A stretch of DNA of 9,937 nucleotides from a virus (lineage: Duplodnaviria > Heunggongvirae > Uroviricota > Caudoviricetes): IMG/VR virus record IMGVR_UViG_2698536681_000002; one strand, written 5' to 3'. How positions within the stretch are numbered: the first letter of the stretch is position 1; every line of letters begins with the position of its first letter. The notes beneath the pieces are model-generated. The model did no database searches, was not told the DNA's origin, and saw only the letters and a list, made by a program, of their open reading frames with translations. Made by a program: the position numbers and the translations under genes. This document shows, in pieces, positions 3,809-8,099 of the stretch.

Positions 3809-4159
3809 TCACCGGATTCGTTCGCGCGCTGTTTTCGCTTTATGGCAGGGCCAGCACAGACTCTGCAGGTTGCTGTCTGCGTCTGTTCCGCCATGCGCTT
3901 TCGGGATGATGTGGTCGACGGTTTTCGCCTCGCTCACCACACCGACACGCAGACACAACTGACACAGACCTTTATCGCGCTTCAGAATACGGGCACGAAT
4001 CACCGTCCATTTTGAGCCATAGCCACGCTGGTGGCGGCTCAGTCCGCGCTGGTGCTGCACCCAGCCTTCACCGCGATGTTTATCGCAGTAACCCGAACTG
4101 TCTGTGGTTGTACCTGCACATCCACGCTTACGGCAGGCACGTGGGATTAGTGATGGCAT
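3809..4159 (-). CDS. HNH endonuclease (terminase-associated), 116 aa
   Basis: Cys-rich N-terminus (CRKRGCAGTTTDSSGYCDKH) and HNH motif (DHIIPKAHGGTDADSNLQSLCWPCH). ATG at 4157-4159 with GAGGT 4 nt upstream. Confidence 0.9.
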   Translation of the reverse strand: MPSLIPRACRKRGCAGTTTDSSGYCDKHRGEGWVQHQRGLSRHQRGYGSKWTVIRARILKRDKGLCQLCLRVGVVSEAKTVDHIIPKAHGGTDADSNLQSLCWPCHKAKTARERIR

Positions 4160-6206: not shown

Positions 6207-6231
6207 AAAAAAACCCGCTCATCGGCGGGTT
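6207..6231 (-). terminator. Rho-independent terminator downstream of the ORF6N gene
   Basis: On the minus strand: 7-bp stem AACCCGC/GCGGGTT with a 6-nt loop, followed by T7 (plus-strand A7 at 6207-6213). About 80 nt after the ORF6N stop and before the tRNA promoter. Confidence 0.65.
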
Positions 6232-6307
6232 TAAGCTGTGTGGCGTAGTAACCACTCTTAACAGGATATTCAACTTTTTACGATCGTAAAGTTTTCGGAA
6301 AAAATTT

Positions 6308-6871
6308 TTAAAACCGCATCAACCGCTCCACCAGTTGCTCTTTACGGGCAACGATCCACCCGTGTTGCTCCAGATAAAATTTAAACCGTTCCAGAGTACA
6401 TACCATCGCATCGGCGGGTACCTTTTCCGTGAACTCAACCTGACCGTGTTTATCGAAGTGGCTCAGTAATGCGCATCCATCATTTTCGATAGATGTGTTT
6501 TGTGCCGCTGGTGGCTGTTTCTGGTTGAAATAACAGTCTTCCAGTTTTTCGAACACTTCCCACGCCTGATCGGTTTCGAGCATTTTGGCGTGACGGGCTG
6601 CGCCACGTTCTGTCCAGAGGATGAGGGAGCGAACGTTACGGGCAATTTTCACAGAAACTCTTAAAGAGTTTTCGTTCTTCAACTCTCGTAACGCATCACC
6701 TTCTATCAGGAAAAAATGTTTACCTTCTATAAACCGTTCTTTGTTTCGATTGAAATTGTTTGTCAAACGCTGGCGCTCTGTTCCGTACAAATCAGCCAGC
6801 AGCTCTGTTGTCATGACAGGAAGATGGTTATGCGTAAGTGACGGGAGTTTTTCAATAGACGTGCGATTCAT
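6308..6871 (-). CDS. ORF6N-domain protein (KilA-N / antirepressor-like DNA-binding domain family), about 187 aa; accessory gene
   Basis: Translation MNRTSIEKLPSLTHNHLPVMTTELLADLYGTERQRLTNNFNRNKERFIEGKHFFLIEGDALRELK...RSLILWTERGAARHAKMLETDQAWEVFEKLEDCYF matches my recollection of the ORF6N consensus (NF.NNK.RF.EGKH.F...G..L.......LWTERGA.RHAK.L.TD.AWEV...LED.YF). Preferred start is the ATG at 6869-6871 (AGGA 7 nt upstream), with an alternative ATG at 6877. The longer ORF-track start at 7069 would run through the promoter/terminator modules and is rejected. Confidence 0.75.
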   Translation of the reverse strand: MNRTSIEKLPSLTHNHLPVMTTELLADLYGTERQRLTNNFNRNKERFIEGKHFFLIEGDALRELKNENSLRVSVKIARNVRSLILWTERGAARHAKMLETDQAWEVFEKLEDCYFNQKQPPAAQNTSIENDGCALLSHFDKHGQVEFTEKVPADAMVCTLERFKFYLEQHGWIVARKEQLVERLMRF

Positions 6872-7014
6872 AGACATGTCCTTTCGAATATTTTGATTTA
6901 CCCCTTTTGAGAGGGTGACCGGGCGCTCAAAACCGTCGAAAGTCGGCGGGCGTATTTCCATTGCTGGTATTGTATTAGCCGCACACCCGGTCATAAACCA
7001 AGAATTCTGGACAC

Positions 7015-7042
7015 AAAAAAACCACATGGCTATCGGGTGTGG
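7015..7042 (-). terminator. Terminator-like hairpin plus T7 tract (module 2)
   Basis: On the minus strand: stem CCACA/TGTGG around an 11-nt loop (an alternative stem GGTATC/GATAGCC is possible), followed by TTTTTTT (plus-strand A7 at 7015-7021). About 45 to 55 nt downstream of the module-2 -10 element. Confidence 0.45.
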
Positions 7043-7077
7043 ATACCGCTTTCGAGGTGTTTTGAGCACCGCGGGGA

Positions 7078-7106
7078 AATGTAAACTGCAAACCTGAAAC
7101 TGTCAA
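7078..7106 (-). promoter_or_regulatory. Candidate sigma70 promoter (module 2)
   Basis: On the minus strand: consensus -35 TTGACA (plus 7101-7106), exact 17-nt spacer, -10 TACATT (plus 7078-7083). Confidence 0.45.
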
Positions 7107-7231
7107 CACCGTCAGGTTCCAATCATCGGGTGGTGAGACGCACAGGGTTGGAACTACCGGGAAACCGACCGGCGAGCTTTTCAGCTCCCCCATGCGCCCC
7201 ACCATAATTCAGATGTGCGCGTGCATACGAC

Positions 7232-7256
7232 AATAAAAAACACGCTCGCGGCGTGT
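7232..7256 (-). terminator. Rho-independent terminator (module 1); candidate tR'
   Basis: On the minus strand: 6-bp stem ACACGC/GCGTGT with loop CGCGA, followed by TTTTTATT. About 75 to 85 nt downstream of the module-1 promoter. Confidence 0.5.
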
Positions 7257-7317
7257 GTCTGTCGCGGTCTCTATCCGGGGTTCCAATCCCGACGCCAGAT
7301 TTTGCTGGCGCGTGAGG

Positions 7318-7347
7318 AATATAGCCCCGGACAATGTGTCTGGTCAA
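7318..7347 (-). promoter_or_regulatory. Candidate sigma70 promoter immediately after the Q stop (module 1); candidate late promoter PR'
   Basis: On the minus strand: -35 TTGACC (plus 7342-7347), 18-nt spacer, -10 TATATT (plus 7318-7323). It begins 5 nt after the Q stop codon and is followed in the initial transcribed region by the hairpin GCGCCAG-CAAAAT-CTGGCG. Confidence 0.45.
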
Positions 7348-7351
7348 GCAC

Positions 7352-7738
7352 CTACATAATTCGTTCTACGTATCTGTCCATCTCCAGCCGGATATCAAGC
7401 ATCATCAACATGCCATCAATAACCCCTTCCGCTTTCTGCAGGCGCTTGCCAATACAGGTATCCGAACACCCATGTTTCCGTGCCAGACTCATAAAAGTCA
7501 TTCCACCTACGTAATAATCCACCAGCAAATCGTGCAAATCCTGATTTTTCTTGTTCAACCGGGCCATACAGCCACAAATTATCATTGCATCATCATCAGA
7601 ACACTGAGGGCGTGATTTCACTTTCGACGGAATTAACCCTTTAAAACCAGCAGCGATCGACGCCCAGGATACATCTTCATGAGTGTTTGCAGCCCAAGCC
7701 CCCCACCGTTCCATAACCTGCTGAATATCACGCGCCAT
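7352..7738 (-). CDS. Late-gene antitermination protein Q, Q21/QuuD-like family, about 128 aa
   Basis: Translation [105 protein letters not shown]... closely matches my recollection of E. coli DLP12 QuuD. Preferred start is the ATG at 7736-7738 (AGGTGA upstream, 11-nt overlap with the RusA stop); an alternative ATG is at 7759. Confidence 0.88.
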
Positions 7739-8099
7739 CGTTATCACCTGTGATTTCATAAATCTTCACGCCCAGTCGCCCACCAGGAACGAGCTGACCG
7801 CGCACAATATTGATTTCATCAAACTGCTCGTCGTCTATGAGTAGTCCGGCATGCGTCAGCGCATCCAGTGGTGCTTTCAGGATATTGTCCAGGTCACGAC
7901 GGCGCTTATCCGGTGGCTCTGCAATAATCTTTATCGCCAGCCTTCCGGACAGGTTTAATTTCAGCCGCTGCTGGCGAACAATTAGCGTCACATCACGGCG
8001 ATAACGCTCACCAACTTTTGATACAAAATATGTGCTGCCACGACGTCGCCAGTAAGTATTCACCGTCGGCGGATAAGGTAAAATAAACTCATGGCGCAT
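7728..8099 (-). CDS. rusA: RusA-family Holliday junction resolvase, 123 aa
   Basis: RusA-like motifs ([12 protein letters not shown]...[30 protein letters not shown]). ATG at 8097-8099 overlaps the upstream stop (ATGA). It sits directly upstream of Q, as in 21/82-type nin regions. Confidence 0.88.

Follow-up and report, generated by a model that had tools for sequence, protein, structure and literature searches.

Two antisense-RNA units in series, IsrK/C4 and decoy/sRNA-Xcc1, as probable gatekeepers of an ORF6N antirepressor gene behind a phage Q gene

The immI region of phages P1 and P7, as Citron and Schuster reportedly described it in 1990 (a study cited in PMC8201110), comprises a c4 antisense RNA, its a1/b1 and a2/b2 targets, icd and ant. 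Here, a gap of about 480 nucleotides (nt; positions 7351-6872) between a Q antiterminator gene and an ORF6N-domain antirepressor gene is compared with this and related systems. The gap lies in a 9,937-nt stretch (hereafter the window) of a Caudoviricetes virus, IMG/VR record IMGVR_UViG_2698536681_000002, and all features described below are on the minus strand. In our judgement the gap quite probably holds two P1-immI-like antisense-RNA units in series that gate translation of the antirepressor: an IsrK/C4 unit next to Q (unit A) and a decoy/sRNA-Xcc1 unit next to the ORF6N gene (unit B). Both RNA switches most likely keep this induction-triggering antirepressor untranslated. Unit A is of a kind already known; unit B, judged by its sequence, would be new, being C4/IsrK-type antisense immunity exerted by a different RNA family together with a dedicated decoy small RNA (sRNA).

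The described counterpart of unit A is found in Gifsy-1, in which the promoter PisrK, of demonstrated activity, drives a short IsrK RNA (Hershko-Shalev et al. 2016, PMC4825925, Table 1A), some transcripts pass the IsrK terminator into 'orf45' and anrP, and a stable species, STnc1160, covers the same stretch as the Rfam C4 match in the window (PMC4825925). IsrK supplied in trans raises anrP translation 114-171-fold (PMC4825925, Table 1), and AnrP induces the Gifsy-1 prophage (PMC4825925). The C4 RNA of P1 and P7 is matured at its 5' end by RNase P, according to the mention of Hartmann et al. 1995 in PMC4919922. The CI RNA of phage P4 (seqA, seqC), named as a structural homologue of IsrK (PMC4825925), resembles the arrangement in the window in being a processed antisense RNA between upstream and downstream complementary sites of one transcript; it causes premature transcription termination, whereas the downstream site in the window overlaps a Shine-Dalgarno (SD) sequence.

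The RNA family central to unit B is known from bacteria. In Xanthomonas campestris, sRNA-Xcc1 was mapped as a discrete 88-nt RNA (PMC2996969), similar in size to the window's member of the same Rfam family. It and the Xylella sXF RNAs have been described as trans-acting, virulence-linked and integron- or island-borne, with many predicted mRNA targets (PMC2996969, PMC12189769), and Xylella Temecula1 carries five homologues at a spacing of ~381-386 nt (PMC12189769). In APSE phages, sRNA-Xcc1 has been placed upstream of an ORF6N gene, with nothing further stated. No link of sRNA-Xcc1 to antirepressor control or to C4-like pairing was found in the literature, subscription literature being outside the search.

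The gap begins behind the stop codon (TAG, 7354-7352) of a Q gene of the Q21/933W family (7352..7759; 135 amino acids (aa); PF06530, E 2.7e-52; ~80% identity to Q of Shiga toxin (Stx) phages) and ends at an AnrP homologue (6308..6871; 187 aa; PF10543, E 9e-21). This ORF6N protein is 49% identical to Gifsy-1 AnrP over its full length (E 6e-58), and PF10543 is present in both. A covariance search against known RNA families, which the original prediction had proposed as a check, placed isrK, c4-a1b1, C4 and sRNA-Xcc1 in series on the minus strand of the gap, all at Rfam gathering thresholds: isrK at 7311-7235 (77.5 bits, cut-off 50, full-length model), c4-a1b1 overlapping it at 7324-7272 (50.1 bits, cut-off 46.7, full-length model), C4 (RF01695) at 7209-7126 (71 bits, cut-off 45) and sRNA-Xcc1 (RF02221) at 6992-6909 (77.4 bits, cut-off 53, model positions 1-87). 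The original prediction, made from the letters of this stretch, had seen two promoter and terminator modules here; every motif that it listed is present on the minus strand where it was placed, and the stretches that it left unexplained are the C4 RNA (7209-7126) and the sRNA-Xcc1 element (6992-6909). In a consensus scan both promoters had 10/12 matches and the first terminator was called; the second hairpin was not called, its 11-nt loop exceeding the limit of the scan. Promoter-like sites numbered 2, against 1.4 +/- 1.2 in shuffles, and on the single sequence are not above chance. Both modules are therefore taken as real because of the comparison with relatives, which bore out two promoter, short-RNA and terminator modules in series, and not because of single-sequence statistics.

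Unit A corresponds closely to the Gifsy-1 locus. By megablast the first half of the gap was matched in Gifsy-1 and in many Stx phages; in Gifsy-1, ~270 nt separate Q from STM2616, and the Q - PisrK - IsrK - C4 - ORF6N layout is the same. Both loci lie directly after Q and share the -10 element, the IsrK hairpins, the terminator, a C4-type RNA and a homologous ORF6N antirepressor, and they differ in the Q family (PF06530 in the window, PF06323 in Gifsy-1). P1, an isrK-type promoter (7318..7347; TTGACC at 7347-7342, 18-nt spacer, TATATT at 7323-7318), starts 5 nt past the Q stop, and Gifsy-1, C311, EC12 and Z869 have exactly the same -10 element and initial transcribed region. The IsrK-type short RNA (c4-a1b1; 7235..7311; RF01394 and RF03163) comprises an invariant hairpin 1 (GCGCCAG-CAAAAT-CTGGCG, 7311-7293), a hairpin 2 (7291-7276) with C4 site 1 (TTGGAAC, 7286-7280), a linker with C4 site 2 (GAGACCG, 7271-7265) and the terminator T1 (stem 7256-7240, then T6 ending at 7235). 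The C4 antisense RNA (7126..7209), equivalent to STnc1160/'orf45' of Gifsy-1, folds at -44.9 kcal/mol (z = -5.0), its minimum free energy structure being the model fold of a long outer stem and two hairpins, and it shows compensatory changes in the outer stem. Its recognition elements are CGGTTTC in the hairpin-2 loop (7167-7161) and GTTCCAA at the 3' junction (7154-7148).

The two IsrK sites and the two C4 elements form predicted duplexes, TTGGAAC/GTTCCAA at -16.6 kcal/mol and GAGACCG/CGGUUUC at -10.3 kcal/mol, and in a five-locus alignment of the window with Gifsy-1, C311, EC12 and Z869 both covary. Site 1 involves three places: in IsrK the loop of hairpin 2, in C4 the 3' junction, and then a further copy immediately past the 3' end of C4. 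These read TTGGAAC, GTTCCAA and TTGGAAC in the window, TTGGCGT, ACGCCAA and TTGGCGT in Gifsy-1, and TTAGGAAC, GTTCCTAA and TTAGGAAC in C311, in which a 1-nt insertion is carried by all three copies. Site 2 (IsrK linker/C4 hairpin-2 loop) is GAGACCG/CGGTTTC in the window, TCACCG/CGGTGA in Gifsy-1, TCGAAAC/GTTTCGA in EC12 and TACGGA/TCCGTA in Z869. A word with complements on both sides of C4 arose in 12/20000 shuffles. Seven loci, which lie behind three different Q-position proteins, have IsrK hairpin 1 (GCCAGCAAAATCTGGC; 7311-7293) in unchanged form. C4 contains nothing complementary to it, and the loop of this hairpin (CAAAAT, +8..+13) resembles a -10 element.

The loci fall into a short form (Gifsy-1, C311; gap ~280 nt) and a long form (the window, E. 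coli EC12, O157 Z869; ~480 nt), which part at ~7100; the added ~200 nt are P2, module 2 and the Xcc1 element. In the short form a downstream copy of site 2 abuts the anrP SD, e.g. TCACCG-GAGGG in Gifsy-1, so that both C4 target sites flank the anrP ribosome-binding site (RBS); this is P1 immI logic. In the long form, site 1 alone is kept downstream of C4 (TTGGAAC, 7116..7122 in the window), without the second site and with no RBS after it, and the sites at the RBS match Xcc1, not C4. Unit A may be a relic of the recombination that joined both units, or may act in trans on other prophages. In the IMG/VR contig IMGVR_UViG_2740892272_000010 the decoy/Xcc1 region is identical to that of the window, and the five-locus IsrK/C4 profile finds its best match in the IsrK/C4 region of this contig, which could extend the context past the ends of the window. 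One viral contig (L098, 2415-2603 and 3555-3766) has an IsrK/C4 unit on each side of an Xcc1-ORF6N cassette, and units can therefore stack repeatedly.

These stretches could in principle be coding, with small proteins read from 6975..7205, from 7123..7347 or from an ORF6N extension starting at ATG 6994, and with the RNA signals secondary. Gifsy-1 orf45 has been treated as translated, its start- and stop-codon mutants altering anrP translation (PMC4825925, Table 1C), and the ORF6N frame is open from 7069. We nevertheless hold a coding role to be very improbable. The orf45-like open reading frames (ORFs) are 76, 45, 27, 44, 31 and 35 aa long with unrelated C-termini, substitutions in the RNA stems are compensatory, and only 3/31 loci have an uninterrupted frame that leads from the ATG at the 5' edge of Xcc1 into the downstream gene; both the gap ORFs as conserved proteins and Xcc1 as a coding N-terminal extension of ORF6N were rejected on these grounds. 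The original prediction had likewise found neither module explained by coding sequence, and had called ORF 6975..7205 implausible. As to that frame, it begins exactly like Gifsy-1 orf45 (ATG GTG GGG CGC ATG), which the verdict had missed; it shows no conservation as a protein (27-76 aa among its counterparts), which agrees with it. A conserved AUG stands at the 5' edge of the outer stem of C4 (UUAUGG) and of Xcc1 (UAUG, 31/44 loci), at 7205-7203 and 6994-6992 in the window; lying outside any conserved frame, it is possibly the context of a processing site.

Unit B repeats the logic of unit A with other sequences. It starts with P2, the promoter of the Xcc1 cassette (7078..7106; TTGACA at 7106-7101, 17-nt spacer, TACATT at 7083-7078), which is followed by a putative decoy short RNA (7015..7072). 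This is module 2 of the original prediction, and it matched no Rfam family even at E <= 10. The decoy has a hairpin GGTG-CTCAAAA-CACC (7070-7056) containing site a1, GCTCAAAAC (7067-7059), then site b1, TCGAAAG (7055-7049), and a weak terminator T2, CCACA-CCCGATAGCCA-TGTGG (7042-7022; 11-nt loop) with T7 (7021-7015). The sRNA-Xcc1-family antisense RNA (6909..6992) carries site b', CTTTCGA, in its hairpin-2 loop (6942-6936) and site a', GTTTTGAGC (RNA form GUUUUGAGC), at its 3' junction (6933-6925). The target leader of the ORF6N gene (6869..6911) has site a2, CTCAAAA (6911-6905), and site b2, TCGAAAG (6887-6881), which overlaps the SD AAGGA (6883-6879); the conserved start codon is the ATG at 6871-6869, another in-frame ATG being at 6877.

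Each recognition element of Xcc1 thus has a partner on either side. The loop CTTTCGA is complementary to TCGAAAG twice, in module 2 and over the SD, and the junction is complementary both to the loop of the module-2 hairpin and to CTCAAAA in the leader; two non-overlapping Xcc1 7-mers with complements upstream and downstream were obtained in 0/20000 shuffles. Adjacency of the decoy sites allows a near-continuous 24-bp duplex with Xcc1, predicted at -35 kcal/mol, and the leader is predicted to form two 7-bp helices of -8.8 and -6.2 kcal/mol. Among close relatives all three copies of the loop site (decoy, Xcc1 loop, SD site) change together, giving three alleles: TCGAAAG, CTTTCGA and TCGAAAG in the window, TCAGTAG, CTACTGA and TCAGTAG in EC12 and Z869, and CAAGTAG, CTACTTG and CAAGTAG in P13374, an O104:H4 Stx2a phage.

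The likeness of unit B to P1/P7 immI lies in an antisense RNA co-transcribed upstream of its own target, in two recognition elements directed at sites by the RBS, in one target copy upstream (here of both sites) and one at the RBS, in an antirepressor gene downstream, and in specificity alleles that differ between relatives as they do between P1 and P7. The regulated gene appears from its ORF6N domain and its identity to AnrP to be of antirepressor type. Unit B departs from immI in that its RNA is RF02221, outside the C4 clan, in that the upstream copy is carried by a separate short, terminated RNA made from a separate promoter, and in that there is no icd-like coupled ORF, no conserved ORF being present in the 38-nt gap from Xcc1 to the ORF6N start. 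Nor is the decoy a recognisable copy of IsrK: the decoy profile does not match IsrK, and only the motif CCCG(G)ATAG is shared. An exact 40-mer of the decoy had no match in species-representative genomes.

The cassette was then followed across viruses. An Xcc1-core pattern retrieved 120 viral contigs, about 70 of them with real elements and 56-58 with distinct recognition regions, and RF02221 scored 64-80 bits in 20/20 loci tested. An exact complement of the recognition region, at least 7 nt long, was present in the element's own downstream 110 nt for 49/58 distinct elements, against 113/580 cross-locus pairings, and upstream for 50/58 against 127/580, the cross-locus controls including related sequences. 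With the hairpin loop alone, the values for own and control sequence were 46% and 2.4% downstream and 52% and 5.6% upstream. Loop words are highly diverse (more than 20 across the viral loci), their complements abut or overlap the SD (e.g. CTTCAAAGgaggtcatcATG), and the start codon follows 35-53 nt past the Xcc1 element. In an all-against-all duplex test the unit's own decoy was the best partner in 23/37 units and its own leader in 12/37. Antirepressor-type N-terminal domains are encoded by 41/45 downstream genes (Rha, 9; P22_AR_N, 7; AntA, 7; Bro-N, 7; ORF6N, 7; KilA-N, 4). A closed outer stem of Xcc1 with an RCCC/RCCA tail is conserved across the family.

The decoy is conserved in plan as well: a hairpin with a1 in its loop, b1, a 4-7 bp stem with the loop CCCG[AT][CT]AG, and a T-run. 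All 41 distinct decoy homologues keep a pairing stem before the T-run in 15 different stem sequences, and unlike stems are cross-compatible in only 9/132 combinations. Stems were scored per sequence; RNAalifold on the MAFFT decoy alignment gave no consensus structure (register shifts). Of 40 distinct cassettes, 75% have a sigma70-like promoter with at least 9/12 matches just upstream of the decoy, compared with 2.9% of 1141 control windows, and a profile of 36 module-2-like sequences, with the window and its close relatives excluded, matches 7074-7015 at E = 2e-11. Because promoter, stem and profile are conserved in this way, P2 and T2 are regarded as genuine parts of the cassette. Two observations were made at other Xcc1 loci: one gene directly upstream of a stand-alone cassette has a ProQ/FinO domain (PF04352, E 4e-13; RNA-chaperone fold), and three CRISPR-DR4 (RF01317) repeats, which may be a phage-borne mini-array, lie just after the antirepressor gene of another (viral contig L054, 2202-2349).

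The same survey bears on the frame of the original prediction, in which the gap holds two PR'-type promoter/qut/terminator units, one a duplicate of the other, with no antisense logic. Two 10/12 promoter matches, each followed by a hairpin and a T-run, are what such a duplication would give, and we still find it scarcely credible. The modules share no sequence, the decoy profile missing IsrK; C4, Xcc1 and the covarying complementary sites would be left unexplained; module 1 scores as an IsrK/c4-a1b1 unit (77.5 and 50.1 bits). Cassettes with module 2 occur in many phages with no Q gene upstream: Q precedes 3/32 Xcc1 cassettes, all three in tandem loci, the other 29/32 upstream genes are not Q, and none of the 20 Xcc1 loci scanned with Rfam contains isrK or C4. 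P2 is accordingly intrinsic to the Xcc1 cassette and is not PR'. The proposal that module 2 is a short terminated RNA or a leader of the ORF6N gene fared better, since both descriptions apply: module 2 is a short terminated RNA, and the leader also begins with it.

Whether P1 is in addition the late promoter PR', with IsrK as its tR'-terminated leader, is a separate matter that is compatible with two antisense units, and we think it possible, if somewhat doubtful. On this account the -10-like CAAAAT at +8..+13 would be a sigma-dependent pause element, and Q loaded at P1 would read past three terminators (T1, T2 and the one at 6232-6211) and on to the tRNA, lysis and head genes. CAAAAT has the key A2 and T6 positions and is invariant in all relatives, among them Gifsy-1, where P1 is not PR'; no Q binding element is recognisable at P1. 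P1 lies 5 nt after the Q stop with a terminator at ~+72 and the late genes on the same strand, and P1-IsrK-T1 has the same formal layout as the lambdoid PR'-qut-tR' cassette (lambda 6S RNA; Q21, Q933W; 10.1101/651190). A promoter directly past Q, with a terminator within ~200 nt and late genes further on, is found in the case of P1, and only trivially in that of P2. Nothing like the PR'-tR' of 78-82% identical Q genes (933W-type, Lambda_ev203) was found in the window, EC12 or C311, nor was an 82-type unit found in the window. P1 and P2 are the sole promoters with at least 9/12 matches in the Q-to-holin interval of EC12, with four terminators between. The P1 -35 element and spacer vary between loci with different Q families, and the block found behind Q in 933W-type phages is located behind ORF6N here, where it leads directly into the tRNA leader.

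Against this, P1 is without similarity to the PR' of related Q genes, and its -10 element and initial transcribed region are identical behind PF06530, PF06323 and DUF1133 (weak PF06530 match) proteins. In Gifsy-1, this promoter and IsrK are followed, right after anrP, by a canonical PR' of the 82/434 type (TTGCAA, 17-nt spacer, TATATT) that has a terminator and a conserved initial transcribed region; none was found in the window. The IsrK unit and PR' therefore coexist as separate elements in that prophage, and the Gifsy-1 IsrK-C4-anrP cassette is an insertion between Q and PR'. Deletion of PisrK in Gifsy-1 still gives phage when AnrP is supplied (PMC4825925, S5B). An obligatory association with Q is also lacking, as there are stand-alone P2/module-2 cassettes without Q, and IsrK/C4 units occur far from Q, e.g. 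in phage PA2. The Gifsy-1 PR' unit is at 3840-3990 (locus L001 numbering), directly 3' of anrP; the isrJ sRNA gene has been placed downstream of anrP (PMC4825925), and IsrJ may be the PR'-tR' leader transcript of Gifsy-1.

The two antisense units could work as follows. In unit A, the P1 transcript would be the short IsrK, ending at T1, and C4 would be carried on read-through transcripts, its hairpin-2 loop and 3' junction pairing with the two IsrK sites. In unit B, P2 would make a decoy RNA of ~57 nt that stops at the weak T2. The spacer in front of Xcc1 (22 nt here, 13-84 nt elsewhere) leaves no room for a promoter of its own, and Xcc1 would thus reach the cell by read-through of T2, a cut like the one that RNase P makes in C4 probably releasing it as a stable species of ~85 nt. 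Its loop CUUUCGA and junction GUUUUGAGC would pair with the two sites of the ORF6N leader, and pairing at b2 would cover the SD, block translation and keep the prophage quiet. With both sites side by side, the decoy would be a much stronger partner of Xcc1 than the leader is; because of this stronger duplex, a surplus of decoy (from more initiation at P2 or more termination at T2) could titrate Xcc1 and release translation of the antirepressor, in parallel with the more than 100-fold activation of anrP by IsrK in trans in Gifsy-1. Since C4 keeps one of its two downstream sites and no RBS, Xcc1 would be the direct gatekeeper of the antirepressor here. Family membership, the complementarities and their three-way covariation are observed; analogy with P1 c4 and Gifsy-1 IsrK suggests the rest, namely that Xcc1 is processed and occludes the RBS, that the decoy acts as a sponge and that T2 is leaky.

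Several points weigh against two working antisense units. Every RNA end at the locus is predicted from sequence, and processing of Xcc1 by RNase P is proposed by analogy with C4 alone. The predicted Xcc1-leader pairing is short, with two 7-bp helices, T2 is thermodynamically weak by calculation, and the module-2 RNA folds at -8.3 kcal/mol (z = +0.93), no better than shuffles. Unit A has no complete downstream target, the two-site C4 target at the RBS being absent from the window. The survey sample was itself selected by a pattern from the Xcc1 core, and some loci escape the crude definition of the loop. Finally, basal translation in Gifsy-1 goes up when the upstream site carries the cis mutation G28A or G31A (PMC4825925); a pure sponge model fails to predict this effect, and the upstream copy may therefore also act in cis or in processing.

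An alternative is that the Xcc1 unit acts in cis only, as an alternative-structure leader with no processed trans-acting RNA, the Xcc1 region pairing with either a1/b1 or a2/b2 and co-transcriptional choice or the decoy deciding translation. All partners lie within 200 nt on one transcript, the decoy-Xcc1 helix would be very strong in cis as well (-35 kcal/mol), and cis mutations in Gifsy-1 act like an alternative-structure switch. The closed outer stem and RCCC/RCCA tail are conserved as in C4, an RNase P substrate, which argues for a processed RNA. P1 C4, moreover, is said to act in trans, as Citron and Schuster reportedly found in 1990. A cis alternative-structure model was proposed for IsrK/orf45 (Hershko-Shalev et al., PMC4825925); against a purely cis role, sRNA-Xcc1 (PMC2996969) and STnc1160/C4 (PMC4825925) accumulate as discrete small RNAs. 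On balance, we regard a role in cis only as rather improbable.

Two further ideas about T2 gained no support, and the first was rejected. In the window the T2 loop and 5' strand have an 8-nt complement in the 5' strand of the Xcc1 outer stem (CACACCCG/CGGGTGTG); over 36 units this pairing is not cognate (own -12.1, other -11.6 kcal/mol; median rank 12.5). P4-style antisense-promoted termination at T2 is likewise unsupported: masking of a1/b1 lifts the predicted T2-stem probability from 0.40 to 0.86 over 41 decoys, a generic effect, and in the window it is absent (0.87 to 0.58).

Downstream of the antirepressor gene, a strong intrinsic terminator (6211..6232) belongs to the block that lies directly after Q in 933W-type Stx phages. 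The surrounding stretch 3' of the ORF6N stop (6290-6205) is homologous to the Q 3' end and terminator of these phages, and from its sequence suggests a recombination scar left when the cassette entered where Q meets PR'. The interval from the antirepressor gene to the lysis genes contains four tRNA genes (Met-cat, Arg-tct, Thr-tgt, Gly-tcc; 6118-5808); the leader of tRNA-Met and its promoter-like site (6157-6128) are similar to their Stx-phage counterparts, and a run of N (masked or unknown bases) at 5745-5741 is located just past the cluster.

Stx2a phages, among them P13374 from the O104:H4 outbreak, likewise have this decoy/Xcc1 unit upstream of an ORF6N gene. The GenBank record of P13374 (L132, 1348-1494) annotates the Xcc1 element and target leader as a 48-aa coding sequence, 'antB2', and the ORF6N gene behind it as 'antitermination'; both annotations are probably wrong. 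Antirepressors induce prophages without the SOS pathway, and gating of their translation therefore sets the rate of spontaneous induction. It would be a bolder claim, and one we consider unlikely as a whole, that sRNA-Xcc1 with its decoy sRNA is a second widespread class of C4-like switch on phage antirepressors, with dozens of alleles, and that the stacked IsrK unit is at the same time the Q-loading promoter here; if this were true, IsrK would serve as a leader that ends at tR', and antitermination by Q would be coupled directly to release of the antirepressor. In Xanthomonas and Xylella, homologues of sRNA-Xcc1 are now discussed as trans-acting sRNAs that are linked to virulence or delivered in vesicles. 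A cis-linked role in phage immunity would alter the reading of those data, place this 'virulence sRNA' family in phage immunity control and make it a natural library of orthogonal RNA-RNA specificities. The seemingly 'empty' gaps behind Q in lambdoid prophages, for their part, can be moron-like regulatory cassettes and not late promoters.

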